Shown one piece after another: positions 2,937 through 48,774 of a DNA stretch of 64,000 nucleotides. Under the pieces are notes generated by a model. That model searched no databases and had not been told where the DNA came from. It saw only the letters and a list, made by a program, of their open reading frames with translations. Position 1 is the stretch's first letter; each line of letters opens with the position of its first letter. The stretch is from Planctomycetota bacterium (GTDB taxonomy: Bacteria; Planctomycetota; UBA1135; UBA2386), in NCBI GenBank assembly GCA_965223545.1, contig OZ245006.1, positions 352,001 through 416,000 of the forward strand, written 5' to 3'. The position numbers and the translations under genes were made by a program.

Positions 2937-5519
2937 TCAGGCCTCGAAGTAGACCGTTACGCGGGTGATCTCGATGCTGGCGGAGACCGCGAGGTCGTAG
3001 AGCACCAGGAACCGATAGCCGGTGGCGTCGTCGTCGTCGAGCACGCCTTCGCCGGCCGGTGCGAAGCGGCCGACGTAGCGGCGCCAGTCGCCGATCGTGG
3101 CGGGGTCGACTTGGCCGGTGGTGGCCTGCACCTGCGCGCCCTGGAAGTAGACCTGCACGGCGGAACCCATTCCGATCGCCGGCCCCATGGCGCGGAAGCC
3201 ACTGGGCCCGGTCCAGCTCGGGTCGTCCGAGTAGAACACGTCCTGCCCGTCCAGCTTGGCGCGCACTTCGTAGCGCAGGAACGTCGGCTTGAACAGCTGT
3301 CGCGTCGGGTAGAAGCGCGACTGGTCGCCGACCTGCAGGTCGGAGTCGCTGAGCACCCCGACGCTGTTCGCGGTGGCCGCCGGCACGGTGTTCGGAAGCA
3401 GGCTCGGACCGCCGCCGTTGGGGGTCTCCAGCCGCACCGAGCCCGCGGCTCCGTCGCCACCGACGACGTGCACGATGTAGATCGCGCCGTCTTGATAGGT
3501 GCCGCCCTTGCCGCCGCTGGTGTCGATCGCGCCGAGCACACTCGACGCCCCGCCGCACTGCATCAGGATCGAGCCACCCGAGCCGCCACCGCCGGGAGAC
3601 AGGGGCGGCGAGCCCGACGGGCTCAGACCACCACGGCCGCCGAAGGCCTGGATCTCCGAGCCGGCTTCGGTGCGAATGTTGCCGCCGGCGCGGAACAGGA
3701 TCGCGCCACCGCCACCGCCACCACCGGTCCCCGGCTTCCACACCACCGGCGTGTTCAGCAAGGAGAAGTGGGGGTGCGAACCGGAACCACCGCCACCGGA
3801 GCCGCCGACCATGAAGTGATCCACGGACCGGGTGCCGGACGGCACCGGGAACAGGTCGAACGCGATGCCGCCCGTCGAGTCGGGCCCGGCGTTCTGCTTG
3901 CTGCCGTTGGTCGAGATCACCTCGCCCTTGGCGCCCTGGGCGGCGAAGCCACCACCGGCACCACCGGCCGCGATCTGCGCGGAGAACTGACCCGCCTGCA
4001 GCGAGTAAGTGACCTGCAGCGGCGCCACCGGATACTGCAACGAGCCGCCACCACCGGTGCCGACCGCCCGCGCCGAGTAGGCGTGACCCGCCGGCAGGAG
4101 CACGTCCTCACCGGGCAAGCCATTCGAGGGGTTGGTCAAGCCGGTCGACGCACGCGCGCCATCGCCGCCCTTGGCGCCACCAGGGGCTCCGGCAGCGCCG
4201 GGCTGGCCGAGCAGCCCACCCTGATAGACACCGGGCGACGGCGCGTTGAGCTCGATCTTGCCGCGCACGTTGATTTCACCGCGAACGAACACCTGGGGCG
4301 GGGTCGAACCGACCCAACGCAGGACGGTGTTCTCGGGCACTTCGAAGCGCGAGAAGAAGAACACGCCGTCGGTGACGGTCACGTCGTTGCCATCCAGCGT
4401 GCGGGCACCGGGAATGGTCTGGTTGTCGGTGTTCCACTCGTAGATCGGATCGGCACCCAGCGGCACGGTGACCGCCCTGCCGTCCCGGATGTCGAATTCG
4501 CCCATCAAGCCGTGGCCGCCGATGACGCCCGGCTTCGCGCTGCCGTTGCCCCAGGAACCCGACGAGTACGCCGGGTCGAGCTGACCGCCGGTACCGAAGC
4601 TCTCGGACACCTCGAACTCCTGCGGCTGGCCGGCATCGGTGATGAAGGAGAAGACCCGGCGCGCGGCGGGCTTGCCGGACAGGTCGGTGACCCGGTCGGT
4701 GACCTCCACCTCGACGCAAACTCCGCCCGGCAGCTGCACGGTCGGCTTGAGGACGACCTGGGTCGTCTTGTTGATGGGATCGACGATCGCCTGCGGCACG
4801 CCGCCGAGGTCGACCGCCGGCTGGGCGGGATCACATTCGACACCACCACCCGCCTTTGGACGGGTGCGACGCAGCCGATACAGCACCGGCGCGGTCGCCG
4901 TGGTCGCCCCCTGGAACGGCTGCACGTCGAGGATCTCGCTGAACGCCAGGATGATCGTCACCGACGTCGGCACCCCCGTCGTGCTCGCCGGTGAGATCAT
5001 CGTGCCGACGGGCGGTTGGCCGTCGAGGTCCTCGACCCCGCGCGTCACGTTGAGAGTGCACGACAGGGTCTGCGGCAACCGGTCGCCCGACGTCGAGCGC
5101 AGCGACTGTGGCTCGGCCGGCCCACCCGGCAGCGTCAGGATGTAGGTCTCGTTGGCGCGGAAGCCGAATGACGTCACTCCACCGACGATCTTGATGTCCG
5201 GCTCGAACCGCAGCTCGTTCCCGTTGACCAGCAGCCGGCCGACCGGTGCCTCGCCGTTGCGCGTCTGGATCGACACCGAGGCCGCGTTGACCGACGACGG
5301 GTCGATGGGCGCGTTGAACTGAATGACGATCGGCTGGTTCTGGGCGATGTCCGTCACCCCACAACCTCCGTTCGCACAGCCGAGGTTGCAGTTTTGGATG
5401 CAGAACTGGCCCCCACCCGCGCAGCGCGCCGACGCCGAGGTCGGGCCATCGGAGCCACCGGAGCACGATGCGAACAGGAAGCCGCCGAGCAGCAAGGCGA
5501 TCAGGAACGGATTCTTCAT
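2937..5519 (-). CDS. Large lipoprotein, family A (Cys-rich N-terminus, Ig-like domains, Gly-rich region), 860 aa
   Basis: Lipobox FAS-C; I.F..PID..SV and VTDLSG patterns typical of Big_5/SbsA-like Ig domains; GGxGG runs; collinear with the 888-aa neighbour. Confidence 0.8.
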   Translation of the reverse strand: MKNPFLIALLLGGFLFASCSGGSDGPTSASARCAGGGQFCIQNCNLGCANGGCGVTDIAQNQPIVIQFNAPIDPSSVNAASVSIQTRNGEAPVGRLLVNGNELRFEPDIKIVGGVTSFGFRANETYILTLPGGPAEPQSLRSTSGDRLPQTLSCTLNVTRGVEDLDGQPPVGTMISPASTTGVPTSVTIILAFSEILDVQPFQGATTATAPVLYRLRRTRPKAGGGVECDPAQPAVDLGGVPQAIVDPINKTTQVVLKPTVQLPGGVCVEVEVTDRVTDLSGKPAARRVFSFITDAGQPQEFEVSESFGTGGQLDPAYSSGSWGNGSAKPGVIGGHGLMGEFDIRDGRAVTVPLGADPIYEWNTDNQTIPGARTLDGNDVTVTDGVFFFSRFEVPENTVLRWVGSTPPQVFVRGEINVRGKIELNAPSPGVYQGGLLGQPGAAGAPGGAKGGDGARASTGLTNPSNGLPGEDVLLPAGHAYSARAVGTGGGGSLQYPVAPLQVTYSLQAGQFSAQIAAGGAGGGFAAQGAKGEVISTNGSKQNAGPDSTGGIAFDLFPVPSGTRSVDHFMVGGSGGGGSGSHPHFSLLNTPVVWKPGTGGGGGGGAILFRAGGNIRTEAGSEIQAFGGRGGLSPSGSPPLSPGGGGSGGSILMQCGGASSVLGAIDTSGGKGGTYQDGAIYIVHVVGGDGAAGSVRLETPNGGGPSLLPNTVPAATANSVGVLSDSDLQVGDQSRFYPTRQLFKPTFLRYEVRAKLDGQDVFYSDDPSWTGPSGFRAMGPAIGMGSAVQVYFQGAQVQATTGQVDPATIGDWRRYVGRFAPAGEGVLDDDDATGYRFLVLYDLAVSASIEITRVTVYFEA

Positions 5520-5580
5520 GGAACGCGGAACGAAGCGGAGGGAAACGGGGGGAAAGGCCGACGGCCGGGCACGCGCTGGT

Positions 5581-8247
5581 TCACAGGGGGCGGAACACGA
5601 TGCGCACGTGGTCGACGACCGCGGTGGTCGACAGTGCGCGGTCGAACAGCAGCAAGAAGCGAATCATCACCGCGCCGTCGGTGTGCACCGATGCCTGGCC
5701 CGCGGCGTGGTCGCCGACGTAGCGACGCCAGGGCTTGATGCTGTCGGGATCGACCTGGCCGAGCGCGTCGACACCGGCACCCTGCGCGTAGAAGCGCACC
5801 GGCTGACCCTGTCCGGCCAACATGCCGACCGCGGGGTCGTCGCTGTAGGTCACCACCGGCGCACCCGGCGATGGGATCAGGTCCATCTCGTAGCGCTCGA
5901 AGATCGGCGGGAACACCTGCAGGGTCGGGGTCCAGATGGAGACCGCACCGACCAACGAGTCCTCCGCCGTCAGCGGGGCCACGGTGATGGACGGTGTGAT
6001 GACTTGACCTTGCGGACCTAGCGCCATGGGCTCGGTTTCCTTCAACAGGGTCAGTGCCGGTGTCTGGGTCGTCTCCAGCCGGAGGAAGCCATGGCTGGCG
6101 TCTCCGCCCTTGGACTGCATGTTCCAGTTGGTCGGAATGCCGAACGACGAACCGCCGAGGCCGCCGGCGATCGAGATCTTGCCGGTCTGCAGGACCGAGG
6201 ATGCGACTTGCAGCAGGACGCTGCCGCCGGCACCCGCGCCTCCCGGCACCCCGAAGTTGTTGGCGCTGAAACTCGGCGCGTCCCCCGTGCTCCCGCCGGA
6301 GGCATCGATCACGCCATCCAGCCCGAGCTCGAAGTCACGGCCGATGCGCAAACCGAGCGCACCGCCGCCACCGGCGCCGCCGCCACCGGACCGCCAGCGA
6401 ATCTGCGTGCTGCCGGGCTGCGACACCGACAGGAACGGGTGCGACCCCGCGCCGCCGCCGCCGGCACCGCCGATCAGCATGTGATCCCACGCGTCGACGC
6501 CGGCGGGAATCGGCAGCAGGTCGAACTGGGTCCCCGCGTCTGCCGGCGGGCCAGCCTCTGCCGGCGCGCCCGTCGGCGTGACCAGCACCTCGCCCTCACT
6601 GCCCGCGACGGCAAAGCCAGCGCCACCACCACCGGCCGCGACTTGCCCGGAGAACTGTCCCAGGACCTGCGTCATGTCGACGTCGCTGTCCAAGCCGGTC
6701 GCCGGGAACTGGCCGGAGCCGCGACCGGCCGAGTTGCGCGCCCGCGTCGCATAGGCGTGCCCCGCCGGCACCTGTGCATCCTGACCGTTGCGGCCGTTGA
6801 ACCGGGGCTGGTTGCCCTGGCCATCGCCCATGTCGGCACCGTCGCCACCCGCGGCGGAACCCGCCGCGCCGCCGCTGCTGCCGCCGACCGCACCGGCCTG
6901 CCCGACCGGGTCGTTGCCGTCCGGCGCCATCAAGCTGCCCCCGGCGAGGTCGAGGATGCCGTCGACCTTCATCAGGCCGCGCACGAAGATCCGCGCCGGG
7001 TTGCTTCCCACGAAGCGCACCCGCACGCCCTTGGTCAGCACGAACTTGCTGAACCGGAACACACCGTCGGTGACGACTTCGTCGTTCCCGCTGAGGGTGT
7101 GCGAGCGGACGCCGGCGAAGTTGTGGGTGCGCGGAATCAGCTGATTGTCGGTGTTCCACTCCCACACGTTGGGCTCGACCTCGACGCCCAGCTCGGGGGC
7201 GAACACTCCGTGCGCGCCGTCCCAGCCGATGTCACCGGCCATCGCAACACCACCGCCCCACGCCCCGGAGGACGAGTCGAACTCCATGCCGAGACTGTTC
7301 TGGAACGACTCGTGCAGCGTCACCGCTGGCTGTGGAGTTGGCCGGGTGGTGAACTGGAAGCGTTGGCCCGGCGACGGAGTGCCGGCGAGATCCTCGACGC
7401 GCGCGGTGACCTCGACGTGGATGCAGACGCCGCTCGGTGCCGTCTGCGCCGGCACGAAGGTCGCGGTCGTCAGCTGGCGCACCAAGTCGTCGCGCAGATC
7501 CCAGGTGCCCAACAGCTCCTGCGGAACGAACGCCGGATCGCACTCGGTGCCGCCGCCCGCCGCCGGCCGCTGGCGCTGGACGCGCACGACGATCGGCTGG
7601 TTGGCGGCCGTCGAGGTGAGGAACGGCGCGTGGGTGATGAACTCGCTGAACTCGAGCACGATCTGCGCATTCGGCGCGAACGGACCGTTCCCGGCCGGCG
7701 AGATCATGTCCGCCTGCGGCGGCGCCTCGTCGAGGTCGAGCACGCCGCGCGACACGGTCAGCGCGCACTGGTACGGCGCGGCGAGCTCGTCGCCGGACAC
7801 CGAACGCAGCACGGAAGGCTGCGACGCGCCCGCCGGCAGCGATAGCAAGTAGGTCTCGCCGGCGCGGAAGCCGAAGAAGCTCGTGGCGCCGACCGACAGC
7901 ACCTCGGGCAAGAAGGTGACCACCGAACCCGACACCAAGAAGGTGCCCACCGGCTCTTCACCGGCGGCCGTGCGCAGCGACACCGTCGACGAGTTGACCG
8001 TCGCGGGATCCACGTCCTGGTTGAAGGTGAAGATCAGCGGTTGGTTCTGCGCGATCTGGTTGATGCTGCAGCCCGCGGTCGTGCAGCCCAGGTTGCAGGA
8101 AGCCAGGCACAGGGCCTCGCTCTGCGGAACTCCCGTGGCGCAGCTCGGCACTACCGGTCCCGGGTCGGTGGCGGAACCGCCGGAGCAGGCGGCCAGCGCC
8201 AAGAGACACGGAATCGACAAGAGTACGGAGCGGCTCAGCATGGGCAC
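5581..8247 (-). CDS. Large lipoprotein, family A, 888 aa (paralog of 2937-5519)
   Basis: Lipobox LAA-C. Shares IAQNQP, GFRAxETY, EWNTDNQ, VTDGVF, PAGHAY, GSHP and WRRYVG with its neighbour. Start is 8247 or 8241. Confidence 0.8.
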   Translation of the reverse strand: MPMLSRSVLLSIPCLLALAACSGGSATDPGPVVPSCATGVPQSEALCLASCNLGCTTAGCSINQIAQNQPLIFTFNQDVDPATVNSSTVSLRTAAGEEPVGTFLVSGSVVTFLPEVLSVGATSFFGFRAGETYLLSLPAGASQPSVLRSVSGDELAAPYQCALTVSRGVLDLDEAPPQADMISPAGNGPFAPNAQIVLEFSEFITHAPFLTSTAANQPIVVRVQRQRPAAGGGTECDPAFVPQELLGTWDLRDDLVRQLTTATFVPAQTAPSGVCIHVEVTARVEDLAGTPSPGQRFQFTTRPTPQPAVTLHESFQNSLGMEFDSSSGAWGGGVAMAGDIGWDGAHGVFAPELGVEVEPNVWEWNTDNQLIPRTHNFAGVRSHTLSGNDEVVTDGVFRFSKFVLTKGVRVRFVGSNPARIFVRGLMKVDGILDLAGGSLMAPDGNDPVGQAGAVGGSSGGAAGSAAGGDGADMGDGQGNQPRFNGRNGQDAQVPAGHAYATRARNSAGRGSGQFPATGLDSDVDMTQVLGQFSGQVAAGGGGAGFAVAGSEGEVLVTPTGAPAEAGPPADAGTQFDLLPIPAGVDAWDHMLIGGAGGGGAGSHPFLSVSQPGSTQIRWRSGGGGAGGGGALGLRIGRDFELGLDGVIDASGGSTGDAPSFSANNFGVPGGAGAGGSVLLQVASSVLQTGKISIAGGLGGSSFGIPTNWNMQSKGGDASHGFLRLETTQTPALTLLKETEPMALGPQGQVITPSITVAPLTAEDSLVGAVSIWTPTLQVFPPIFERYEMDLIPSPGAPVVTYSDDPAVGMLAGQGQPVRFYAQGAGVDALGQVDPDSIKPWRRYVGDHAAGQASVHTDGAVMIRFLLLFDRALSTTAVVDHVRIVFRPL

Positions 8248-9704: not shown

Positions 9705-11540
9705 TCAGTCGCGTGGCGCTGCCGCCAGCCCCTGCAGCGCGGCCAGAACCGCGGGCTCGAACGGCGCCTGCTGCGCGGCGCGACGGACGTCGGCCGCGGC
9801 GGCGGCTGGCTGACCCGCGGCGCGGTGGGCGTCGGCGCGGTCGAGCAACACGGTCCAGTGATCCAGTCCCAACGACACGCTCTCGTCCAGCAGCTCCACC
9901 GCCAGGTCGGGGCGCCCCTGGAGACGGCGCGCGTGCGCCGCGGTGCGGTAGACCAGGCCCTTGGGCGCCTCGAACTCGTGCACTGACAGGGCCGCCGCCA
10001 CCGCCTGATCGTAGCCGGCCGGGTCGCCGGTGCGGCGCGCCGCGGCCGCCAGCGCCCGGCTGAGGAGGAGGCGGAAGAACGGGTTGTTCGCCCCGCGCTC
10101 CACCAGCCAGCGCGCGTGCGCCAGGGCTACCACCGGATCGCCGCGCTCGCCGAGCTGCAGATTCAGCTCGGCGATGCTGCGCCGCGCGGAGACGTAGTCG
10201 GGGTAGCGCGCCACCGCGGCGCGCATGTGGCGGAGCGCCGGCTCCAGCGCGCCCGCCCGCATCGCCAGCGCACCGAGGCTGTAGTGCGCCCGGTAGGACT
10301 CCGGCGCGAGCACCAGCGCGCGGCGCCAGAGCTCGCACTCGTCCCGATAGGCGGCACTGCGCTCGAACGCCACCGCGCCGAAGCCGAGCGCGAAGCTGGC
10401 CGGAATCGCCACGGCAACGGCCCTGAGCCAACCGCGGTCGGCGCGCCGCGGCAGCGCGGCGCCCGCCGCCAGCGCGGCGCCGGCGACCAGGCCGTACATG
10501 CGATGCTCGCTGAGCGGCACGTTGAGCGGCACCACGATCCACGGCAGCGACGTCAGCCAAGCGAGCGCGGTGGCCGCGAACAGCACCGGCCGCCGCGCGG
10601 GTCGCGCCAGCCCCCACGCCGTGAGCCCGCCGATCAGAACGACGCCGAACAGGACCGTCGCGGACGCCGGGCCGCGCACGAACTCGACCGCTGGATCGAG
10701 AGTCAGCGCGTTCGGCCAAACCAGCTGTGCCAAGTAGCCGGGCAGCGCGCTCGCCATCGTGCACAGCTGCGTCAGCAGATCGCGGCCGGCACCGGTCAGC
10801 GGGTCGGCCCCACCGACCACGACGACGCGGGGCAGGGTCGCGGCGCCGAACAGGGCGCGACGGATCAGCAGATAGCCCACCGCGACGGCCACCACCGGCA
10901 GCAGCCGCACCACCACCGCCCGCGGCCGCAGCGCTCCGGACTGCCGCCAATGCACCAGCTCCAGCGCCACGACGAGCGCCGGCAGGACCACCCCGGTCTC
11001 CTTCGCGCCGCACGCGATCACCCCACACAGTGCCACCACCCAGGGCCAGCCGCGCCCCCGCGCCTGGGCGTACAGATGGGCGTGCAGACCGGCCAGCAGC
11101 GCGACCAGAAGCAGGCCCTCGCTGCGCGCCGAGATCATGTTGACGGTCTCCGATACCAGCGGATGCACGGCGAACAGGAGGCCCGCTGCGGCAGCCGCCC
11201 ACCGACCCAGCCCGAGGCGCCGGCCAAGCCCGGCCAGCAGCAGGGCCGCGGCCGCGTGCAGGAGTACGTTGGTCAGCTTGAACATCCAGACCGCACCGCC
11301 GGCGATGGCGTGGTCCACCGCGAACGTGGTGAGCAGCACCGGCCGGTACATGCGGTTGTCGAGCGAGCTGAACAGCGTCACGTCGGTGAAGAACGCGGGC
11401 ACGTTGGCGAGCGACCACAGCGCGGTGTTCTCCGCCACCGAGTGGTGGTCGTCGTAGACGAACGCCCCACCGAGGGCCACGCCGTACGCACCGAACGCGC
11501 CCACCAACACCAGGATCCACGGCAACCCAATGCGCTTCAT
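9705..11540 (-). CDS. TMTC-like GT-C membrane glycosyltransferase with C-terminal TPRs
   Basis: True start MKRIGLPW at 11540 (ATGA overlap). FVYDD, YRPV, HPLVSETV, KETG and SEHRMY match the TMTC/DUF1736 pattern; multiple TMs, then TPR-like repeats. Confidence 0.75.
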   Translation of the reverse strand: MKRIGLPWILVLVGAFGAYGVALGGAFVYDDHHSVAENTALWSLANVPAFFTDVTLFSSLDNRMYRPVLLTTFAVDHAIAGGAVWMFKLTNVLLHAAAALLLAGLGRRLGLGRWAAAAAGLLFAVHPLVSETVNMISARSEGLLLVALLAGLHAHLYAQARGRGWPWVVALCGVIACGAKETGVVLPALVVALELVHWRQSGALRPRAVVVRLLPVVAVAVGYLLIRRALFGAATLPRVVVVGGADPLTGAGRDLLTQLCTMASALPGYLAQLVWPNALTLDPAVEFVRGPASATVLFGVVLIGGLTAWGLARPARRPVLFAATALAWLTSLPWIVVPLNVPLSEHRMYGLVAGAALAAGAALPRRADRGWLRAVAVAIPASFALGFGAVAFERSAAYRDECELWRRALVLAPESYRAHYSLGALAMRAGALEPALRHMRAAVARYPDYVSARRSIAELNLQLGERGDPVVALAHARWLVERGANNPFFRLLLSRALAAAARRTGDPAGYDQAVAAALSVHEFEAPKGLVYRTAAHARRLQGRPDLAVELLDESVSLGLDHWTVLLDRADAHRAAGQPAAAAADVRRAAQQAPFEPAVLAALQGLAAAPRD

Positions 11541-13836: not shown

Positions 13837-14538
13837 TCAGTTGACGACGACCCAGCGCTGGTTGTCCAGGCCGGTGGAGTTGGCGGCGTTGGTGCTGCCC
13901 ATGTTCGCGCTGGTGATGCCAGTCAGGAACGCGGCGGTCACGGCCGGAGTGGTCGTGGTGCCGTTGTAGCGCGTGACGCTGTTGCGGCCGGAGAGCACGT
14001 CACCCTGCTGGTTGACGAAGAACACCCGCTTGCCGGAGTTGCCGTAGCTGGTCGGCCAGGCGTAGCACATCCACATGACCTCGGAGGTCGAGGCACCGAT
14101 GGTGACGCCACTGCCGCCGCCCGAGGCCGCCTCGGACTGCGCCACGGCCGAGCCGTTCGGCAGGTACAGCTGGAAGAAGTAGCCCGAGCGCTGCACGCGC
14201 GCGCTGATGACGTTGGTGAAGGCGCCCGACAGGAACGGCGGGCTGATGCGCTCGGTGCCGACGCCGCCGGTCTCGTTGTTGCGGACGGCAGTGCCGCCGG
14301 CGAGCTCGGCGAAGAAGCCGTACTCACCCGCGCCGTTGTTGTTGGTGTCGATGATGCCGGAAGCCTGGCACTGCGACTGGGCGGACGAGATGTTCTTCAG
14401 CGTGGCGATCGCGGCCGACTCATTGGCGTTGAGCCGCGCGCTGAGCAAGTTCGGAATCGCGATCGACGCGATGATGGCGATGATCGCAACCACGATCATC
14501 AGCTCGATGAGGGTGAAACCCTGTTCGCGCTTGGTCAT
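13837..14538 (-). CDS. pilA: Type IV pilin (probable major pilin), 233 aa
   Basis: Class III leader MTKREQG|FTLIELMIVVAIIAIIASIAIP with E5; own long upstream region and downstream hairpin; Ser/Thr-rich C-terminus. Confidence 0.85.
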   Translation of the reverse strand: MTKREQGFTLIELMIVVAIIAIIASIAIPNLLSARLNANESAAIATLKNISSAQSQCQASGIIDTNNNGAGEYGFFAELAGGTAVRNNETGGVGTERISPPFLSGAFTNVISARVQRSGYFFQLYLPNGSAVAQSEAASGGGSGVTIGASTSEVMWMCYAWPTSYGNSGKRVFFVNQQGDVLSGRNSVTRYNGTTTTPAVTAAFLTGITSANMGSTNAANSTGLDNQRWVVVN

Positions 14539-14880
14539 TTCTTTCTCCCTATTGCGTGGACTGTGACGCGGACCTCCCGCAGGCCCGGCCCGACTCTCCC
14601 TCTCCGGGGACCCCCCGATCCCGACGGCAACACACCGCGATCACGGTTGGGCGCCGAGGTCCAGCGGACTGCGCTTCGTTGTTTCGCGAAGCCCACTGAA
14701 GAACGGCATGTGGAGGCCTATCGATCCGCTCGAGGGGGCGTCTTTAGTACTGCCCAGAGGAATCTCGCAACGGTGCCAGGCGCGCTATCGGAGTCGGCGA
14801 TGCCATCGCGACAACGGCGCGTGCGGCCCGGTCGAAGCGCCGCGAGCCCCTGAGCGCGTCCCGAGCGAGGCGGCGGCGCC

Positions 14881-28800: not shown

Positions 28801-29823
28801 GATCGTCAGCACGCGCTCCGCGGTGTCGACCGCGACGATGCCCATGCCGAACGAGCCCATCACCATCGGCGGATCGACGTCGCGCAGCGCGCCGACCAAA
28901 CCGTCGTCCGGGTTGCCGGAACGGAAATCGCGAATCACGGCCGGCCGACCGGCGCTGCCGATGGCGTTGAGGGCGGTGACCGAATCAGGCTCGACTTCGA
29001 GCAGCGAGGACACCGCTCCGCCCGACGGAATCGCGACGCGGATGTTCGCGGTCTCGTTGTCCAAGCTGGTCGGCAAGCCGGTGCTGGTCAGGCCGCCACC
29101 GGCCTCGGCGCCGATCAAGGTCGTGTCGATCACCAAGGACGACCCCTGCGGCAGGAAGCGCACCTGGACCGGCCGGAACGCCTGGCTCGCGCCGACCACG
29201 GCGGGATCACCGGTGAACTCCAGGACTTGCACCGCACCGGGGTTGGCGGCGAAGAACTGCTGGGAGAGACCGAGATTGCGGTCGAAGGTCAGCTTGAGAG
29301 CGGCATTGCGCGGCACCACCGGAATCGGCCGCACCACGGTGTTCTGACCACGGAACGAACCCGGCACGGTCACCAGACCGGTCTGCGCGGTGTTCAGGGC
29401 GGCGGTGAACCGCGCCCCCTCGTCCTCATCGCGGTCGTCCCACAGGATCAACAGCTCGTCGTGGCCCACCGCCACGTCGAACGGAAGAAAGCGATAGTTG
29501 GCGCCGGTGTTCTCCGCCCCGGTGGCATCGAACAGATCCTCGGACTGGATGTCCGGTCCGACCATCACGTCACGGCGGATCAACGCGGGCTCCCGGTTCA
29601 GCGTGTCCCGCCGTTCCGGGTTGGTCCGGTCGATCCGGCGGAAGGCGTAGATGTCGACCAAACGGCCGTACTCGAGGCCGATCAGTGACGCCTTGCCACC
29701 CGTTTGCGTCGGCGGCACGGCCCCGCCGGAGGAGCTCCCATCACACCCGCCGAGCACGCCGGCCCCCAGTAGAGCCAGGGCCGCGGACCAGGCGCTCGTC
29801 TTCTGTTCAACCGCTCTCTTCAT
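25897..29823 (-). CDS. Very large lipoprotein, family B, 1308 aa
   Basis: Lipobox LGG-C; full-length collinear motifs with 33468-37430. Confidence 0.8.
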   Translation of the reverse strand: MKRAVEQKTSAWSAALALLGAGVLGGCDGSSSGGAVPPTQTGGKASLIGLEYGRLVDIYAFRRIDRTNPERRDTLNREPALIRRDVMVGPDIQSEDLFDATGAENTGANYRFLPFDVAVGHDELLILWDDRDEDEGARFTAALNTAQTGLVTVPGSFRGQNTVVRPIPVVPRNAALKLTFDRNLGLSQQFFAANPGAVQVLEFTGDPAVVGASQAFRPVQVRFLPQGSSLVIDTTLIGAEAGGGLTSTGLPTSLDNETANIRVAIPSGGAVSSLLEVEPDSVTALNAIGSAGRPAVIRDFRSGNPDDGLVGALRDVDPPMVMGSFGMGIVAVDTAERVLTIEKRGANVAIRARIPFVDGGLLPSSGLPGGPAQVPTEVPLRSGDVVLQDVVSPITGETVRIRAEVVQNLDVGSVVGDPNMPVLGMNASGSDNGSNPVVRLRVTQLSAVDSQGNRVSFESAAGAGRDCTVNVSYYHNVPYVASFGAGLVRDADRLDQFVVVESGSTSGAPDPFATVSLRFTEPMDLETIDRYDNFLLTDNSVSPLESPDIVGLLSDPKVAGLSVQPARLVDAERNATLLQLVPPLGFFHEAGVPEIYWLHLIVDPDSEIPAPADLSGNVVDLFDRNLLNPATSLSVSVAIDAAAEENLVGGRVFRFESADEDGTVPGSVDFFGQFQLIDGRLSGAETSRFQQTADAANLAGIQRFNQGSCWDPQAQPVPTTTPPDPTIWPPGQLYQCPTHVVTIFQPPAPFVVGTPVVFGGVLEPLNPRGSRLQMTYREDDFSLSYTDPSSMMIDVEQLHWAPWNGDQVDFDTFDRMTMSLAHADWRPDLLYNLVFVQGAAAATCDFDCASAFSGLTDVFESNYLEGTQRVDVVVDKVYQLSPNDSFRSASTGTLFTPYPTFETTYTWRDSRLVSWDMANDSAIGLSGAKLPDGVFPSRDRTAHISSPWAFEFPQDPANPAGPGIPAGFTGTTWDVDAGDFLGHRRRDHDPIAMPLLVEFMTFPDSPVNGLASGANSQHIAMVGPCWAPFPGGPGGFYNLNASGGVPGCNGVLWPAFRVHSSGGIDILDNEIFVDPANEFRATGGFIFNPGIGDPVKGVRRAPFGDDHLHWAQADFVRRVSSVTYGFFDTLRPNAYQIAPWSGSTSQEGFPNLVPLANGVRDLITVQDPPDAQQPAGTSVRIEFRFVDDFDRADVFYDPNDPAAIPTTTSPLGTFGNLLNPNYACEAYRYATPNWDPSFSQETATNPRVRASGLTPYVTEEGLDRVRDPAGLLPRYANMRIVFENNIVSAPAVSPSLRSLAVVFRYEGL

Positions 29824-29914: not shown

Positions 29915-32900
29915 TCAGAACCGATAGGGAATCACCAGGGAGCGCAGCTCCGGCAACGGACTCGACGGGGTCAACGGAATGTTCGGCGCCGTGTTGTTCG
30001 GCGCGTCTTCCGAGTACCGCGTGTTGAACACGACGTCCCACTGCACGAAGGCAGCTCCGCCCATGAACTGTCGGACCTCCTCTTGCCGGGCCGGGTCGCC
30101 CAGGTCGTAGAGGAAGGTGCCGACCGTCGTCGGCAGGCGGTCGGGGTCGTCGCCCTTGGTAATCGGCGGCTGGCCGAGCTTCGGCGTCGGGTCCCGGTGG
30201 AACGCGAAGCCGATCTGGATGTTGGCCACCGGCAGGTTCTTCGATGTGGTCGCGCCGGTCGGCACCTGATAGGTCGGGCCAAGACCACGCGATCCGTTGG
30301 TGAACACCTGGACGAAGCGCTCGATCACAGCCAACCGCATGTCGTTCTGGCTGGGCAGCGAGCCCTGGTCCGGGCTGAGATAGACGACCCGCTGGTCGTG
30401 ACCGACGATCCGGAACTCGCCCAGCACCGTGCCACCCGAATCGGTGATCCGCGCCTGGTACTGCGAGTAGCGGTCGGCGATCGAGCCCATCACGGCGTCG
30501 GTCAGCGTCACCCGGTAGGCCAGCTCGCCCTCGAAGGTGCTGTTGCGATCGGCAGACGCGATCGAAGTCGGCGCCACGACGGTCGGGCCCTTCAGCGCGA
30601 TCCCGGTCACCGTCTGGTCGTAGTCCAGATACCCGGTCCAGTTCGAGCTGGTGTCCGCGTTGGTGCCGGTGAACGTGTAGGTCGGCCCGGCCAGGAAGTT
30701 CTGGCTCTCCTGAATGGTCCGCGCGCCGGGCCCGTTGGTGGCGAACGGAAGGCGCACCGACCGACCCGTGTCGATCCACTTCGAGCGCACGCGCGACTTG
30801 TGGCTGATCGGGCTCGGCAACAGCACCGGCGCCGGCCGGATGTCGCCCTCGTCGTCGATCGTGGCACCGTTCGAGTAGGTCAGGTTGCCCTCGTCGTCGA
30901 CCCACTCGCCCGCGCCGTTGAGGAAGCCGCGCCAGGCGAGGTAGCGGATCTTGTCGGCCGGGTCGGTCACCAGGTTGCCGTTGGCCTCGTAGAGCAGGAT
31001 GTTGTCGTCCAGCACCGTGTTGGTGCCGTCGGCGTTGTCGACACCGGCCGGCGCCATCAGCTGCACCAGACCCATGCCACCCAACGCACCACTCGGGTTG
31101 CTGTCCCACTGCGTGCGCGGGCTCGGCGGCGGATACTTGCCGAACCACTCGGCGCCACCGAACTGGCCCTGCGTACCCGTGCTGCCATCCGCCGAGATCG
31201 CGTACGAGTAGTCGCCGTTGGCGTAGGTCTCGCCGTGCATGGTGAGCTCGATGCGGTCACCCGCCATCAACACGACCATGCCGCCGGAGCCGCCGCCGCC
31301 GCCACCACCTTGGTTGTTGCCGCCGGCCTGCTCGCCGCCACCACCGGTGCCGCCATCCGCACTGACGACGCCCTGCGCGCCGATGCGGATCTTGCCCAGC
31401 GCCTGGATGACGAGCACGCCGCCGCCGGCGCCGCCGCCGCCGCCCTTGTTGTTCGAGATCCAGTTGTTGTTGCCGACGCTCGGCGCCTTGTCGCCGCCGC
31501 CGCCGCCGCCGGAGCCACCGATCGGCGCCGCCAGCTCACCGTTGATGCGAATCAACCGCGCCAGGTCGACGCCGCTGCCCCAGAAGTTGTTGTCCTTGCG
31601 CGAGTCGCGGAACACTTCGGGACCCGGCAGACCACCGGGCAGAGTGCGGCTGGCCGCACCGCTCGAACCGGAGCAGCCGTAGCCACCCTGGCCGATCTGC
31701 TGGACGAACGACGTGCCCTGCGCCTTGGCCGGGAAGTTGGGGTCGCCCTGCGTGGACATCGAGCCGCCACCGCCACCGGAACCACGGCTGCAGGAGCCCG
31801 CACCGAGCAGGCCGCCACCACCGCCGCCCTCCGGCACCTGGCCCGGGCCGAAGCCGGCCTCACCCGTCGGGCTCTGCCCGCTGGTGTTGGGGCTGCCGAC
31901 GCCACCGTTGCCACCACCGCAGCTGCCGACTCCACCACCGGTGACGAAGTTGGCCGAGCGCAGCGTGTTGACGCGGTCGCCCGCACCACCGTTGACCTGC
32001 AGGATGCCATCGACCTCGAAGTCGTTGGTGACCTGCCAGATCATCGGCTTGGTGCCGCGACCGATCACCGACACGCCTTCCGGAATGCGGACATTGCGGA
32101 AGCGGAACACGCCGCCGGCGACGTTGAACGGAGGTGCGCCCTTCGGCGTGATCTGCGTGAAGTCGGTGTTGAGGAAGACCTGCGAGGCGGCCGGCTCGTA
32201 GTCGAGGATCGTCGACGAACCGTCGAACTCGAACGCCGCCTTGACGAACCCGTTGCCGACCTCGGCGAACGGCTCGAGGAACGGAGCTTCGAAATCGATC
32301 TGCTCCGAGTTCTGGTCGAACTGCGCCACGATGGCGTCGAACTGCGGCTCGTACGACTCCCGCGTGAAGATCTTGGCGAACTGCCGGCTGTACGAAGCGT
32401 CGCCGACGTTCGACTCACCCGACATGTCCTCGAGCGTGTTCTCGACGATCACGCGGATCTCGGCGTTGTTGGGCAGCACACCCACCGGGAACAGCCGCAC
32501 CTCCGAGCTGCTCAGCGTGTTCTCGGTCAAGCGCACGACCGCCGGAATCCACACCGAGCTGCCGACCAGGGGGTCGGGGTCGTCGTACTCGAGGAAGATC
32601 CGTCCGCGCTGTCCCTCGACGCGCGCCAGCGGATCGGGGTCGAAGTCGACCGGCACGTTGCTGGTCGCCGGGTTCAGTGGCTGGTTGAACTGCAGCACGA
32701 TCTGCACCAGCGCCTGGCCCGACTTGTTGAGCGCGGTGCCCGGGTTCGAGCCACCCGACGTGGTCGGCGTCACCGAGAAGCCGACGCGCCGCGGTCCGCC
32801 CGCCAGGCGGTCGCGGAACAGCTCCGCCGGCGTGGTGCCGTTGGCCGTGCTGAACTGGAACGACTGCGGGATCGCCAGCGACTTGCCGCTGATGTCCTTC

Positions 32901-33364
32901 AAGACGTTGTTGTTGCGCGCGTTGCCCCCGACCAGGTTGACCAGGTAGGTCCGGCCCGGCCGGAACCCACCGTTGGTGTAGGAGTTGTTGCTCGGAAACT
33001 GCGGCACGAACTCCAGGCGACGCCCGGGCTCGGTGTCGCCGGGCGAAGTCGCCAACCGGAACGAGCCGACCGGCTGCTCTGCCAGGGCGGTCCCCGCCGC
33101 GTCGAACACCTCGAACGCCACCGTGTTCAGGTTCGCGGTGGAGATGTCCACCCGATTGGTGAAGTCGATGGCGATCGGGTCGTTCAAGAACAGGCGCCCG
33201 TTGGGAGCCGGCTCGGTCCGCAAGACGATGAAGTCACCACCGGCGAGGGTGCTCGCCGTGTCGCTGCCGCTGGTGCAACCGGAAAAACCCAAGAAGGCGA
33301 CAGCGAGCGCCGCCGGCACGAGGCCGCCGCGGCGCGTGTTTTGGAAGGCAAAACTCATCATCAT
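29915..33364 (-). CDS. Very large lipoprotein, family A (Ig-like plus long Gly-rich region), ~1150 aa
   Basis: Lipobox FSG-C; LNDPIAIDF, GGFRPGRTY, DMSG, GGVFRFRNVRIPEGV, many GGGGG runs. Start is among the ATGs at 33358-33364. Confidence 0.8.
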   Translation of the reverse strand: MMMSFAFQNTRRGGLVPAALAVAFLGFSGCTSGSDTASTLAGGDFIVLRTEPAPNGRLFLNDPIAIDFTNRVDISTANLNTVAFEVFDAAGTALAEQPVGSFRLATSPGDTEPGRRLEFVPQFPSNNSYTNGGFRPGRTYLVNLVGGNARNNNVLKDISGKSLAIPQSFQFSTANGTTPAELFRDRLAGGPRRVGFSVTPTTSGGSNPGTALNKSGQALVQIVLQFNQPLNPATSNVPVDFDPDPLARVEGQRGRIFLEYDDPDPLVGSSVWIPAVVRLTENTLSSSEVRLFPVGVLPNNAEIRVIVENTLEDMSGESNVGDASYSRQFAKIFTRESYEPQFDAIVAQFDQNSEQIDFEAPFLEPFAEVGNGFVKAAFEFDGSSTILDYEPAASQVFLNTDFTQITPKGAPPFNVAGGVFRFRNVRIPEGVSVIGRGTKPMIWQVTNDFEVDGILQVNGGAGDRVNTLRSANFVTGGGVGSCGGGNGGVGSPNTSGQSPTGEAGFGPGQVPEGGGGGGLLGAGSCSRGSGGGGGSMSTQGDPNFPAKAQGTSFVQQIGQGGYGCSGSSGAASRTLPGGLPGPEVFRDSRKDNNFWGSGVDLARLIRINGELAAPIGGSGGGGGGDKAPSVGNNNWISNNKGGGGGAGGGVLVIQALGKIRIGAQGVVSADGGTGGGGEQAGGNNQGGGGGGGSGGMVVLMAGDRIELTMHGETYANGDYSYAISADGSTGTQGQFGGAEWFGKYPPPSPRTQWDSNPSGALGGMGLVQLMAPAGVDNADGTNTVLDDNILLYEANGNLVTDPADKIRYLAWRGFLNGAGEWVDDEGNLTYSNGATIDDEGDIRPAPVLLPSPISHKSRVRSKWIDTGRSVRLPFATNGPGARTIQESQNFLAGPTYTFTGTNADTSSNWTGYLDYDQTVTGIALKGPTVVAPTSIASADRNSTFEGELAYRVTLTDAVMGSIADRYSQYQARITDSGGTVLGEFRIVGHDQRVVYLSPDQGSLPSQNDMRLAVIERFVQVFTNGSRGLGPTYQVPTGATTSKNLPVANIQIGFAFHRDPTPKLGQPPITKGDDPDRLPTTVGTFLYDLGDPARQEEVRQFMGGAAFVQWDVVFNTRYSEDAPNNTAPNIPLTPSSPLPELRSLVIPYRF

Positions 33365-33467: not shown

Positions 33468-36400
33468 CTAGCGATTCTCGAAGCGATAGGTCACCACGAA
33501 CGAATCGATGGTCGGGGTGATCGGCGGCGTCGCGGCGACGTTGTTCTCGAACACGAACCGCCAGTTGAAGTAGCGTACATCTTCCGGGAGGAAGCTCTCG
33601 CTGGGGGCTGCGAACTGGGTGGTGAAGGTGTCCAACATCAGGGCGTTCGGATCACCCACGTACTCGGTGATATGGCGGTTGTAGTAATACGTCCACCACT
33701 TCCGCGACTGCCCGCCGGTGTCCGGACGATCATCGAACTTCCGGATGTGGGCATCGCCGGCCTTGAGCGGGTCGAGCGGGAAGTTGGTCTCGTTCGGTTG
33801 CGGCATGTAGCCGTTCTGCGCGGCCTGCGCCGCCCACGGTTGCGGGTCGACGATGCCAGCGCCGCGGAACTCGGGCACCAACCGGGTGCCGCCCGGCAGC
33901 TGTGACAACGGCGGCTCGAAGTAGAAATCGAACGCCGGCAGCACGCCCTGCGGGCCAGCCACGTCGAAGTACGGCCCCATCCGCGGATCCGGAGGCGGCC
34001 AGCCCTGCGTGCGCTGGGGGTCCATTCGGTGTGGGTCGATGATGTCGACGAAACCGGCGGTCAGCACCGAGACGCGCTTGACGTAGTCGGCCATCATCCA
34101 GAACAGCGTGTTGTCGACGCTCCGGGTGCGCGCTCCGCCCGGAGTGAAGCCGCCCTTGGCGTTGATCCAGTCGGGCGAGCCGGGCGAAACCGTCACCGCC
34201 GAGCCCTGCACCAAGCCGCCGGCCGAGTAGGACCGGAACCCGGGCTGAGGACCGGAGGTCAACGCCAGCGACACCTGCCAACCGTTGGTACCAGCGGCGA
34301 GGAACGGGCCCTCGACCGGCAACAGCGGGTCATCGGGGTAGACCCAGAAGTCGGCCATCAGCGGCAGCGCGATCGACCCGACCAAACCACCGGTCTGGCT
34401 CTCGGCGTTGCGCGTCGAGCTGATCTGGAAGTTGCGCCGGTTGTCCCAGAACCCACTGTTGAACGCCGGCGAAACGACCGGCACGGGCGGCTGGCCGACC
34501 ATCGTGGTCCGCGTCGACGCGAAGCGGCCCTGGCCGCCCAAGAACGGCGACAGGACGTAGGGCGTGTAGTTGTTGGCGCGCCCGGTCTGGGTGTCGTAGC
34601 CCTGCCCGGAGTTGGCGCCCTGCAGCATCAGCCGCTCGTCGCGCCAGACGAAGTAGGGCTCCTCGAACTCGGGCAGCGGCAGGTAGCGGTAGACACCGTT
34701 CACCTCGGTGATCGCCTGGCTGGCCAGGATGGTCAGCTGCTGGTCGACGAACGCCGGCCAGGGCTGCTCGGCCTCTTCCTTGTTGTTGCCGGTGATGTCG
34801 GGGTTGTAGACGTAGTTGTCGGCGAAGGCCGTGCCGATGCCCGAGTTCTGCAGCGTCGGCAGCGCGCCGAACTGACCGACGCAGGGCTCCGGACGCTTCT
34901 CGGCGTGACCGAGGAACAGCGAGATGCGGTCGAACTCGTCGAACGACACCGCGGTGGTGATGAAGGGGCACCAGTAGATCTGCTCGACGTCGAGGTTGAA
35001 GTCGTTGGGATCGGACTTCGACAGGCTGACGTCGATCTCGCGCCACACCATCTGCAGCCGGCAACCGTTGGGGTTGAGCGGGTTCTGCAGCGGGCTGCCG
35101 AAGCGCGCCGTCGCGGTGCCCGCCACCGTCTGCTGCTCTCCCCCGATCGAGTACGGGCAGAAGTTGTTGTTCGAGTTCTCCTCCTGCGGCGGCGCGGGCT
35201 GCTGGTTGAGGTCGTCGACCGCCTGGCGGACACGCGTCGTCGGCCGCGCCGACAGGGTGCCATCCGAGAGGTAGACGACGGCGCCGAAAGCGTCGATCAA
35301 GTTGTGCGCCTTGGCGTTGTAACCCGCGCCACTCGGCACCTCGTCGGCGACGTAGTAGGACGGCTGCTCGTCTTCGTCGGGGTTCTCGAACCGCCGGGCA
35401 ATGGTGACCACGCGGTTGTCGGCGAACAGCGGTGAACCGCTCGTGCTCGAGCGCGTATCCAGGCTGAACGGGATGACCACGTTGGACTTGACCGAGACCT
35501 CGGACTGGAAGTCGAGCTCGTTGCCGGCCAAGTCCTTGATGCCGTCCGGTCCACCGACCAGGTGCAGGAAGTAGCGGAACTTCTTCTGCTCGAACGGGAC
35601 GCCCTCGTCCTCCTGCCGCATCTGGTCGTCGAGATAGAAGCCCTTGCTCGGCAGCAGGCGGATCGACGTCTGCGAGCCGTCCTCGTCGAACACCTGGGCG
35701 GCGACGAGGTGCGGGGTGACGAACTTGGCGTGGATGAACGCGCTCGGGTCGATCCCCTGCGCGACCTGGAACCCGGTGACCTCGGCCGGATCGAGCAAGT
35801 CCCGAGTGCCGAAGAAGAAGGTGTCGAGCGCCTTGACCGTGTTCATGTCGACCGGCTTCGTGAACCGCACGATGGCACCGGCGAACGGCGACACGTTCTC
35901 GTTGGGCTCACTCGGCGTGCCGTTGGCGAACGGCTGCGGCGCCGGCGTGAAGTTGACGAAGTAGCGCGGGTCGTCGCCGTAGGCGTTGCTCAGCGAGTCC
36001 AGCCGCTCGGCGGTGTACTCGGCGACCAGCACCAGCCGCGGCGCGTACTGCACCAGCCACTGCTCGCGCTGCTGCTGGTTGCTCGGGTAGGCCGGGATGC
36101 CCTGGTTCTGCTGCCAGAATAGGTTGCCGGCCGCCGGCGGATCGCTCGGATCCCACGCCGCGAACACGTCGAGCTCGCCACCGCCGGGCTGCGGGGCCAA
36201 GACGCGCCGCACCACCGCGCGCACGTGCTGCACGTTGGGGCGCTCGAAGTCGTCGACCGGGTCGATGGTGATCTCGGAGACGGCCGCCGGCACGCCGCTG
36301 TTGTCGACCATCAGGCGCACCGCGTCGCCGCGATCGAGCTCGTGCAGGGCGCCGCCCTTGTAGATCGTCACCACCTGGGTGAACTCGTCCACCGGCTCGA

Positions 36401-37430
36401 CGCTCTCGACGTACATCAGGATCTGGCCGGCGATGCGCGGCGGGATCGCGTCACGCAGAAAGCCCTGCGCGATGTCCGGCGTGTTGTCGTTCTTGTTGCC
36501 CGAGCGGAAGTCGCGAATCACCGCCTGCTGGCCGCTGAGGTTGTTGCCGTTGAGGTTGCCGGCACGGTCGGGGCGCAGCCCCGGAATCGCCAGCGGCCCC
36601 TCGAGCGCGATCGCGACGCGGATGTTGGCGCCGATCTGATCGGGCGACGCCGGCATGCCCGAAGCGCTGTTGCGCGTCTGGTACTGCAGGCCCTCGCTGC
36701 CGAGCAGCACCGGGTCGAGGATCAGCTGGTTGCCGCGCGGCACGTAGCGCGTCGCCACCTGCTCGAGCGATCCAGGCTGGTTCGGATCGCCACCGATCTC
36801 CAGCAGCTGCACGGCCTCGGTGTTCTTCAGCCCGACCACCTGACCGCTGCTGCCGCGCTCGACGAAGAAGCTCTCGTCGAGCGGCAGGTCCTGGGTGAAC
36901 GTCAACCGCAGGGCGGCGTCACGCGCCACCAAGGAGAACGGTTGGGTCGCCGTGTTCTGCCCGAACGAACCCGGCTGCACCAGGCGCAGCTCGTCGTCGA
37001 GCGCGTCGAACGCGGCGTCGAACTCGGCGCTGCCGATGACGCGGGTGATCAGCAGCCGCGGCGCCAACGTGTCCGGGTCCGAGCTCAGGAAGTCGTAGAG
37101 GATCTCCGAGTCCGGCTTGTTGGAGTTGCTCGACCGCTCGTCCTCGATGTCGGGCCCCACCATCACGTCGGCCAAGTACAGATCGACCGTGGTGCCGCCC
37201 GCCGACTGCCGCAGCCCGTAGACATCGACCAGCTTGCCGAACTCCATGGTCGCCAGCCGCAGGCTGTTGCCCGACACCCCCGGCACGTTCGACGCGCCAC
37301 CGCCACTGCCGCCGCAACCGACCAAACCCAGCGCCAGCATCGCCGCCGCCGGCCACGTGCAAAGCGACATCCCCGCCGCGCGGGGCCTGGCCGCCGGCTC
37401 TGGAGTGACTCGAGGCTGCGAAGTGGTCAC
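33468..37430 (-). CDS. Very large lipoprotein, family B, ~1320 aa
   Basis: GTG 37430 is preceded by AGGAG; lipobox LVG-C. Shares DVMVGPDI, NIRVAI, VIRDFRSGN, RLQM..RE, DVEQ and VFENN with 25897-29823. Confidence 0.8.
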   Translation of the reverse strand: MTTSQPRVTPEPAARPRAAGMSLCTWPAAAMLALGLVGCGGSGGGASNVPGVSGNSLRLATMEFGKLVDVYGLRQSAGGTTVDLYLADVMVGPDIEDERSSNSNKPDSEILYDFLSSDPDTLAPRLLITRVIGSAEFDAAFDALDDELRLVQPGSFGQNTATQPFSLVARDAALRLTFTQDLPLDESFFVERGSSGQVVGLKNTEAVQLLEIGGDPNQPGSLEQVATRYVPRGNQLILDPVLLGSEGLQYQTRNSASGMPASPDQIGANIRVAIALEGPLAIPGLRPDRAGNLNGNNLSGQQAVIRDFRSGNKNDNTPDIAQGFLRDAIPPRIAGQILMYVESVEPVDEFTQVVTIYKGGALHELDRGDAVRLMVDNSGVPAAVSEITIDPVDDFERPNVQHVRAVVRRVLAPQPGGGELDVFAAWDPSDPPAAGNLFWQQNQGIPAYPSNQQQREQWLVQYAPRLVLVAEYTAERLDSLSNAYGDDPRYFVNFTPAPQPFANGTPSEPNENVSPFAGAIVRFTKPVDMNTVKALDTFFFGTRDLLDPAEVTGFQVAQGIDPSAFIHAKFVTPHLVAAQVFDEDGSQTSIRLLPSKGFYLDDQMRQEDEGVPFEQKKFRYFLHLVGGPDGIKDLAGNELDFQSEVSVKSNVVIPFSLDTRSSTSGSPLFADNRVVTIARRFENPDEDEQPSYYVADEVPSGAGYNAKAHNLIDAFGAVVYLSDGTLSARPTTRVRQAVDDLNQQPAPPQEENSNNNFCPYSIGGEQQTVAGTATARFGSPLQNPLNPNGCRLQMVWREIDVSLSKSDPNDFNLDVEQIYWCPFITTAVSFDEFDRISLFLGHAEKRPEPCVGQFGALPTLQNSGIGTAFADNYVYNPDITGNNKEEAEQPWPAFVDQQLTILASQAITEVNGVYRYLPLPEFEEPYFVWRDERLMLQGANSGQGYDTQTGRANNYTPYVLSPFLGGQGRFASTRTTMVGQPPVPVVSPAFNSGFWDNRRNFQISSTRNAESQTGGLVGSIALPLMADFWVYPDDPLLPVEGPFLAAGTNGWQVSLALTSGPQPGFRSYSAGGLVQGSAVTVSPGSPDWINAKGGFTPGGARTRSVDNTLFWMMADYVKRVSVLTAGFVDIIDPHRMDPQRTQGWPPPDPRMGPYFDVAGPQGVLPAFDFYFEPPLSQLPGGTRLVPEFRGAGIVDPQPWAAQAAQNGYMPQPNETNFPLDPLKAGDAHIRKFDDRPDTGGQSRKWWTYYYNRHITEYVGDPNALMLDTFTTQFAAPSESFLPEDVRYFNWRFVFENNVAATPPITPTIDSFVVTYRFENR

Positions 37431-47479: not shown

Positions 47480-48774
<1,295 letters not shown>

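Follow-up and report, generated by a model that had tools for sequence, protein, structure and literature searches.

We analysed a 64,000-nucleotide stretch of a Planctomycetota genome (positions 352,001 to 416,000 of contig OZ245006.1, assembly GCA_965223545.1; hereafter the window), in which six genes for large lipoproteins of two families, A and B, are found in and around a type IV pilus locus. The reading that we prefer, tentatively and at somewhat less than an even chance, is that the six products make up a lipid-anchored heteromeric envelope coat, probably exported by the type II secretion machinery (T2SS) like SslE, and that they are not a component of the type IV pilus. The first-pass annotation of this DNA had described six co-oriented lipobox genes of about 18 kb, four of them running B-A-B-A directly upstream of the prepilin peptidase gene pilD and two, here called A2 and A1, lying beyond the glycosylation genes, and this description is borne out. 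All six lie on the minus strand, encode a lipobox each and amount to 18,453 nucleotides combined:

33468..37430, minus strand: B2, lipoprotein of 1320 amino acids; predicted immunoglobulin-like (Ig) domains Ig1-Ig2 with a small beta-barrel insert, jelly-roll stem and lectin-like jelly-roll head, an architecture read from the model of L041, a paralogue 43% identical to B2
29915..33364, minus strand: A4, lipoprotein of 1149 amino acids by the database call (the open reading frame, 29915-33400, has 1161); predicted Ig1 at about 32840-33238, Ig2 at 32360-32821, beta-helix/polyglycine head at 30809-32272, small beta-barrel at 30317-30586, and a stem
25897..29823, minus strand: B1, divergent B paralogue of 1308 amino acids, lipobox cysteine at position 27
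23830..25761, minus strand: A3, shortened A paralogue of 643 amino acids, which stays directly upstream of pilD
5581..8241, minus strand: A2, lipoprotein of 886 amino acids from the ATG (888 in the open reading frame, 5581-8247)
2937..5519, minus strand: A1, lipoprotein of 860 amino acids

Each of the six proteins has a hydrophobic N-terminus and a lipobox cysteine (LFASC, ALAAC, ALGAC, VLGGC, GFSGC and LVGC), followed in most of them by a Gly/Ser tether, and no second clearly membrane-spanning stretch is found in any of the six. A crude lipobox pattern, used here instead of SignalP, occurs in 111 of 119 B2 homologues and 110 of 119 A4 homologues; its background within the first 40 residues is about 7%. 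A1 and A2 are 40% identical, B1 and B2 26-35%, and the A profile spans all four A proteins as the B profile does both B proteins. The proposed division into two families therefore holds at the level of profiles that cover their own members, but not as two separate superfamilies. When diverse A and B profiles are compared they align across both Ig domains (hhalign probability 98.5%, E 2e-15; 63% with a narrower A profile), and for this reason A and B are, judged by their sequences, one superfamily with exchangeable heads.

The superfamily is poorly covered by existing resources. The Pfam family Big_5 (PF13205, cut-off 23.6 bits) scores above its cut-off in A1 (49.4) and A2 (40.5) and below it in A3 (22.3) and A4 (19.7); it is not detected in the B proteins, whose Ig domains match through profile and fold instead, and Pfam gives nothing besides Big_5 in the six. 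In A2 there are two Big_5 domains, a Gly-rich head and a Cys-rich N-terminal loop. None of the six is matched in NCBIfam, a sequence search of the PDB with both profiles returned nothing below E 0.27, the ESM Atlas holds hypothetical clusters only (scores 0.76-0.89, with one Myxococcota-rich cluster at 0.89), and a viral library gave partial Gly-rich and Ig matches only. A curated family covering the six at full length was thus found neither in Pfam nor in NCBIfam, and Foldseek and the PDB likewise offered no characterised family matching over the full length, which the first-pass annotation had named as evidence that would speak against a new system.

The phylogenetic distribution is wide and, within the order, dense. 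B2 is matched in all 31 genomes of the order that were searched, its own included. Across 401 evenly sampled Planctomycetota genomes, 65 are matched by the B profile and 123 by the A profile, many A matches being weak or confined to the Ig or glycine part, and the 26 genomes of the same order in this sample are all positive for A and B. The samples consist of incomplete genomes, and a gene not found should not be read as absent. With a broader B profile, 21 of 35 selected genomes were added and 14 were not matched (including families f11, f13-f18, f20, f22, f23, f29 and f90; families are given here by our own numbers). Among 1.84 billion representatives this profile retrieved 768 clusters (50% identity, E up to 1e-30); the named homologues are Planctomycetota, bar a few odd labels of metagenome-assembled genomes. 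A related-locus search of genome contigs keyed on glycine patterns gave at least four loci.

Gene order is conserved as well. In the same family, for which 17 of 18 sampled genomes were fetched, the full run B2-A4-B1-A3-pilD is present in 14 of 17 genomes and A3-pilD in 16 of 17; one contig ends early. Other families of the order have B-A4-(A3)-pilD in 6/6 and 7/7 main loci (13/13), and five further B loci are orphans. Outside the order the run is kept in f26, in f109 and in eight of nine f68 genomes (one contig ends), with overlapping B stop and A4 start in 6/8 f68 loci; in all, B and A4 are adjacent in ten genomes from these three families of other orders. The claim of a lineage-wide, uncatalogued set of envelope proteins beside pilD is therefore supported by synteny and by the lack of a full-length curated match. 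The link to pilD, wide as it is, loosens in places: f62 and f98 have a B-like and an A gene after pyrB and apart from pilD, and f30 and f96 have just a short A3 in front of pilD in six loci (one more locus stops at pilD), with their large A and B genes located elsewhere. A3 shrinks to about 250-320 amino acids in several other families. We also observed tandem arrays of A4-type genes away from pilD, at least five in f96 (locus L155, genome G403) and at least three in f30 (L156, G050), where some copies seemingly have no lipobox. No family member was found before pilD in f12. Among more distant Planctomycetota genomes, pilD is single-copy in 28 of 29, and directly upstream of it there is a member in 10 of 28, none in 15 and too short a flank in three. 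Since housekeeping genes travel in the same block (obg, coaX, mnmE, pyrB and EF-G2 are linked about as faithfully as the pil genes), synteny alone proves little.

This arrangement raises the question whether the cassette serves type IV filaments in general, the member next to pilD being an anchor, chaperone or tip partner and the others cargo or tip adhesins. A member does abut the single pilD in those 16 of 17 same-family genomes and in all loci read in the order, as it does in f26, f30, f68, f96, f109 and the ten further genomes, sometimes overlapping the pilD start, and the A head ties with the pilin solenoid of ComZ. We nevertheless regard this explanation as unlikely. The six proteins show no class III prepilin signal, either as an N_methyl match or as a motif; the cassette is kept in genomes where orthologs of pilTBC and pilMQ were not found; the f62 and f98 genes are separate from pilD yet still beside pyrB; and 15 of the 28 distant genomes have no such member before pilD.

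The strongest result concerns the pilus machine of the window itself. The first-pass annotation had suggested that the proteins are exported by, or work with, the neighbouring pilus and secretin machine, and this is not supported. The pilC ortholog is present in 27 of 42 carriers of the cassette (51-76% identity) and was not found in 15, where the best matches reach 34-40%: all four f9 genomes, one f6 genome and all ten f68 genomes. Thirteen of these 15 have a readable locus and all 13 keep B-A4-(A3)-pilD. In the five of these 15 carriers that were tested, no PilQ ortholog was found (E above 1e-18, weak secretin-domain matches only), PilM reaches 25% identity at most, and the best PilB matches (38-42%) lie beside a GspD-like secretin, whereas five equally distant controls all have full-length PilQ (E 1e-139 to 1e-207). 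The genomes concerned are 84-92% complete, and the gap in the motor genes is also visible inside contiguous loci; in f9 and f68 an A1/A2-like gene lies within a few kb of pilD or EF-G2, at the site expected for the motor genes. Because the cassette is kept where pilC, PilQ and PilM orthologs were not found, it appears not to need the retractile pilus of the window, and its products are likely not pilus parts. A dedicated type IVa pilus component was rejected on the same grounds, as f6, f9 and f68 keep the cassette in genomes where orthologs of pilB, pilC, pilM and pilQ were not found. Of the proposed synteny and co-occurrence with pil genes, the B-A4-A3-pilD order has thus held into other orders, while the pilus motor orthologs were not found in part of the carriers.

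The predicted structures indicate what kind of protein the cassette encodes. AlphaFold models were made of A4 (residues 55-1161 of the open reading frame; predicted local distance difference test score, pLDDT, 94; predicted template modelling score, pTM, 0.88) and of L041, in place of B2, which is too long to fold (pLDDT 91, pTM 0.88). In these models the two proteins share a layout of Ig1, Ig2, a jelly-roll stem with an inserted head, and a small beta-barrel, the stem being composed of segments that flank the head on both sides. For the Ig domains the fold matches are CopC, SbsC, LdtMt2 and alpha-2-macroglobulin (Z up to 11.1), with Z 9-11 and a root-mean-square deviation (rmsd) of 2.1-3.3 over about 95-100 residues for A4 and Z 7.1-7.8 for B; the SbsC matches are to single domains (A4 Z 9.9, rmsd 2.8, 98 aligned; B Z 7.5). 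The A head (residues 323-810) forms a beta-helix with glycine runs interspersed, and ties with an ice-binding protein (Z 8.5, rmsd 3.0, 119 aligned), TMEM2 (7.9), the beta-solenoid of the ComZ pilin (Z 7.1, rmsd 3.1, 139 aligned) and two-partner secretion domains. Examples of polyglycine II bundling are known from other proteins, and by analogy the glycine runs of the A head may bundle in this way. The B head (642-1001) has its tied matches among jelly rolls, with 7tog (Z 8.4, rmsd 3.3, 155 aligned), the lectin-like domain of Cwp84 (7.0) and a phage tail tip all in the range Z 7-8.4. The stem is assigned from weak matches to CBM16 (Z 7.1) and Fbs2 (Z 6.1). Foldseek against the PDB gave no whole-length match (TM by query below 0.1), and VIA-align of the whole 1100-residue models, a weak test, listed neither a type V pilin nor PilY1 nor any other fold of an entire protein. 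The A4 and L041 models are almost all beta and show no helical wall-binding anchor.

The best fold matches of the Ig stalk suggest, as an alternative, a different location for the proteins. A4 matches LdtMt2 (Foldseek E 4e-7) and the MG domains of E. coli alpha-2-macroglobulin (Z 9.9, rmsd 6.0, 192 residues aligned within the first 293), and such stalks could face the periplasm, spanning or bracing it together with the OmpA-domain lipoprotein encoded two genes downstream of the cassette, in the way that the stalks of alpha-2-macroglobulin and L,D-transpeptidase do. The presence of the family in every searched genome of the order and its even conservation, described below, would suit a scaffold of this kind. 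We consider it rather improbable, as the heads resemble folds of adhesins or lectins and are found again on tail-domain proteins that have signal peptides, the ompA gene follows pilD even in genomes where the cassette is absent, and no catalytic YkuD, thioester or peptidoglycan-binding domain was found in the six proteins.

The conserved tandem of B and A genes suggests that their products meet. Complex prediction of B2 residues 55-660 with Ig1-Ig2 of A4 scored 0.59 against 0.18 for the best control, which is weak support: 116 of 157 solved pairs reached the mark, as did two of 215 mismatched pairs, but at scores of 0.60 or lower just 18 of the 157 solved pairs did, along with both mismatches. 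At least 88% of contacts are shared between runs, and the partner pLDDT is at least 83. In these models the contact between B and A likely runs through the Ig stalks, and given the conserved B-A tandem together with the weak complex score, the cassette products probably form an assembly.

Pairwise identity is even across Ig domains, stem and head (53-61%; 43% for the barrel of A) in sets picked by likeness to the query, which is as expected for a structural part and not for a fast-changing adhesin. Family-level median identity is 45-49% for B2, A4 and B1 and 34% for A3, compared with 42 for mnmE, 48 for ompA, 51 for pilD, 57 for EF-G2, 70 for pyrB and 71-77 for pilT, pilB and pilC; the rows for A1/A2 and pilT2 are confounded by paralogues and were left unused. 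The idea that the cassette evolves more slowly than housekeeping genes holds in part only, B2, A4 and B1 being near pilD and ompA and below pyrB and pilT/B/C. These data bear on the possibility that each paralogue is a stand-alone lipid-anchored adhesin or lectin, and that the genes are clustered by descent only. The modular heads would fit such binders, as would the tandem A4-type expansions in f30 and f96, the equal synteny of housekeeping genes, and 13 more A/B-module genes scattered away from the pil genes in the source genome (19 matches in total; the neighbours of ten were inspected). Still, the heads are no more variable than the stalks, the B-A order and coupling persist through several orders, and the complex prediction lends its weak support to a pair, so that we think independent binders distinctly improbable.

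A further clue comes from a tail domain of about 125 residues, which ends 337 proteins of the source genome (5,729 genes by a rough call) and occurs in multiple copies in 81 of the 401 Planctomycetota genomes. It was matched in NCBIfam in 0/22 cases, and Pfam gave nothing for the two copies in the window. Among the 19 source-genome proteins with A or B profile matches, three have an A head followed by the tail domain, two have the tail domain before an A stem and head, and in one a weak copy stands ahead of a B stem and head. The heads also exist fused to the tail domain in proteins with neither lipobox nor Ig stalk, and in L039, a full B homologue from another family, the tail domain replaces the lipobox (E 1e-13). 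From these sequences, the lipobox with its stalk and the tail seem to be alternative ways of mounting the same heads, and the tail domain is a candidate sorting or surface tag. If this putative role as an export or surface tag is right, alternative mounting favours a location outside the cell for the cassette as well.

The Ig stalks might also bind the tails of about 340 exported proteins in the manner of cohesin and dockerin, a docking role that would be compatible with a coat. Of the 81 tail-rich genomes 69 have A or B matches and 11 of the other 12 match the broader profile (80/81), and the replacement of lipobox, or of lipobox and stalk, by the tail in some homologues points the same way. 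Against this, 57 genomes have A/B matches without tail expansion, near full-length members in f33, f42, f62 and f98 included, and shared ancestry accounts for the overlap; a one-to-one co-occurrence of cassette and tail domain was not found. We therefore hold docking to be very unlikely.

For the lipid-anchored coat that we prefer, the following mechanism can be proposed. The lipobox suggests that Sec export and lipidation would come first. By analogy with yghJ-pppA-yghG-gsp, the T2SS might then move the lipoproteins to the outer surface, and the single PilD would process the T2SS pseudopilins. The predicted rods, two Ig domains bearing a jelly-roll stem with a swappable head, may pair B with A through the Ig stalks and join into a lattice or chain, and the heads could bind glycans, surfaces or each other. 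The source genome has a separate gspD-E-F-G-H-I-J cluster about 310 kb from the cassette, and a full-length GspD-like secretin match is present in all 13 searched carriers of the 15 in which no pilC ortholog was found. A far-reaching form of the proposal, which we think quite unlikely, is a lattice of fixed B:A heterodimers from several paralogues that is universal in the OM190/Saltatorellota-like branch, stands in for an S-layer on shape-shifting cells and docks about 340 tail-domain exoproteins per genome. For an attack complex or a motility track, both offered earlier as possible functions, nothing was found.

Several observations weigh against the coat. The outer-surface location is what we infer, and a lipobox is compatible with surface or periplasm; an Asp at +2, considered as a sorting signal, was dropped since it is not conserved (in the same family, 7/18 for B1, 1/16 for A3 and 0/31 for A4 and B2), and two homologues, L036 and L039, are apparently without lipobox. 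In fold searches the Ig stalk comes closest to proteins of the cell wall or periplasm (LdtMt2 by Foldseek, and alpha-2-macroglobulin), and the fold matches of the heads, all at Z 7-8.5, fall in a range that the tool classes as common. Of 58 genomes, 56 have a GspD-like secretin, cassette-free ones included, so its unspecific retention permits T2SS export and does not show it. The member directly upstream of pilD in many families hints at a closer tie to type IV filament biology than a mere coat would call for. In f19, f53 and f77 this member is single, and these families cannot form the same B:A pair unless the partners are encoded elsewhere. The complex score, finally, is weak, its controls were unrelated proteins and not Ig proteins, and the stalks of B2 and A4 are paralogous.

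The gene order around the cassette is B2-A4-B1-A3-pilD-ompA-EF-G2-pilT-pilB-pilC-(TPR)-pilA-GT2-GT4-(GT/TPR)-(HEAT, plus strand)-A2-A1, where GT stands for glycosyltransferase and TPR for tetratricopeptide repeat, with intergenic gaps of 42-184 nucleotides from B2 through pilT. The other features of the window are:

51916..57571, minus strand: pilQ, pilO, pilN and pilM, absent from the first-pass annotation
37800..48472, minus strand: pyrB, mnmE-like, coaX-like, PDZ/GspC-like, second pilT and obg genes
22706..23665, minus strand: pilD prepilin peptidase, by sequence (PF06750 in relatives)
21995..22663, minus strand: OmpA-domain lipoprotein
13837..21867, minus strand: EF-G2, pilT, pilB, pilC, a small TPR gene and pilA
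9705..13737, minus strand: GT2, GT4 and a membrane protein with TPRs
1359-2876, plus strand, and 43619-46351, minus strand: tail-domain genes

As the first-pass annotation had noted, there is no minor-pilin cluster in the window; two sit elsewhere in the source genome. A PilY1 family search of that genome was uninformative, its controls giving no signal, and a promoter and terminator scan stayed at chance level. The TPR membrane protein at 9705-11540 (minus strand) is kept just before A2-A1 in the family and is a possible glycosylator of Ig domains; its N-terminal motif is, we presume, reminiscent of TMTC-type O-mannosyltransferases, and Pfam gave no match for TMTC. The PDZ protein at 41027-42307 (minus strand), with weak GspC-family matches, stays in the block where pilus motor orthologs are missing (f6, f68), and pyrB at 37800-39134 (minus strand) is fused to a PyrI-like C-terminal metal-binding domain. 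Between obg and an ELWxxDGT gene there are a Fic/Doc gene and, by eye, a small upstream AbrB-like gene (46707-47344, minus strand), likely an inserted toxin-antitoxin pair. At 61800-64000 the GC content goes down to 55%, and HNH-like, response-regulator and histidine-kinase open reading frames can be seen by eye; this is likely a foreign insertion. In the f19 loci (L141, L142, L158) pilC comes directly after pilT, pilB is missing from the locus, and two pilA genes come next. Elsewhere in the source genome (G000:C1), a second pilin cluster at 1,836,500-1,851,800 (L181) encodes a weakly GspK-like protein of 1751 amino acids, several prepilins, a TPR protein and an Amuc_1101-like PilM, and at 7,076,990-7,090,900 (L184) a MamK-family actin (over cut-off) lies by two secretin genes, with an ExbB/ExbD-like set by eye.

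The cassette belongs to a large family without a curated model, on which every searched genome of the order spends 14-18 kb. We infer that the source genome falls in the OM190/Saltatorellota branch. The branch likely includes the cultured shape-shifting Saltatorellota, and a conserved coat would be a testable lead for their unusual envelope; the cassette might also supply a partner for the tail domain, itself uncatalogued, that hundreds of exported proteins bear. A description of the cassette was not met in the literature searched on Saltatorellus, OM190, UBA1135 and Planctomycetota surface proteins, which covered few subscription journals. For cultured Saltatorellota (OM190) a type IV pilus cluster with PilB and PilT and a MamK-like actin are reported (10.1101/817700), and the source genome is alike in having PilB, PilT and a MamK-family actin; the main text of that account contains no occurrence of lipoprotein, Ig-like or S-layer.

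Among known systems, the SbsC/Big_5 surface proteins, which include the Geobacillus S-layer protein SbsC, share the tandem Big_5/CopC-like Ig domains. The match is per domain only, and the lipobox, the split jelly-roll stem and the inserted head have no counterpart in the matches; the host here is a diderm, several fixed paralogues replace one main gene, a lattice is only proposed, and Pfam detects no SLH domain in the six proteins. Like SslE/YghJ, the cassette encodes giant lipobox proteins with a linker, from genes before a prepilin peptidase and a small lipoprotein. In E. coli this order is yghJ(sslE)-pppA-yghG-gsp, and SslE is described as T2SS-exported and surface-anchored (PMC3707838, PMC8881592). 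The six proteins differ from SslE in having no HExxH motif or M60 Pfam match and no sequence link that was found, and in the distance to the T2SS genes; the same export route is our suggestion. Thermus ComZ and the PilY1-type tip adhesins are likewise large adhesin-like proteins encoded near pil genes, and ComZ ties with the A head; our proteins carry a lipobox instead of a prepilin signal, PF05567 (the PilY1 beta-propeller) has no match in the six, the A4 and L041 models have no beta-propeller and end in jelly-roll stems, and the cassette is kept without pilus motor orthologs. The bacterial alpha-2-macroglobulin ECAM and LdtMt2 resemble them as large membrane-tethered proteins with N-terminal Ig stalks, and differ in the CxEQ thioester motif and YkuD, neither of which is found in the six, and the rest of the chain is unmatched. 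Type V pilins (Fim/Mfa) are marked by two transthyretin-like domains and polymerisation by strand exchange. Taken together, the six proteins resemble Ig-stalk surface lipoproteins and S-layer proteins, and by these comparisons stand outside the SslE, PilY1, pilin and alpha-2-macroglobulin families.

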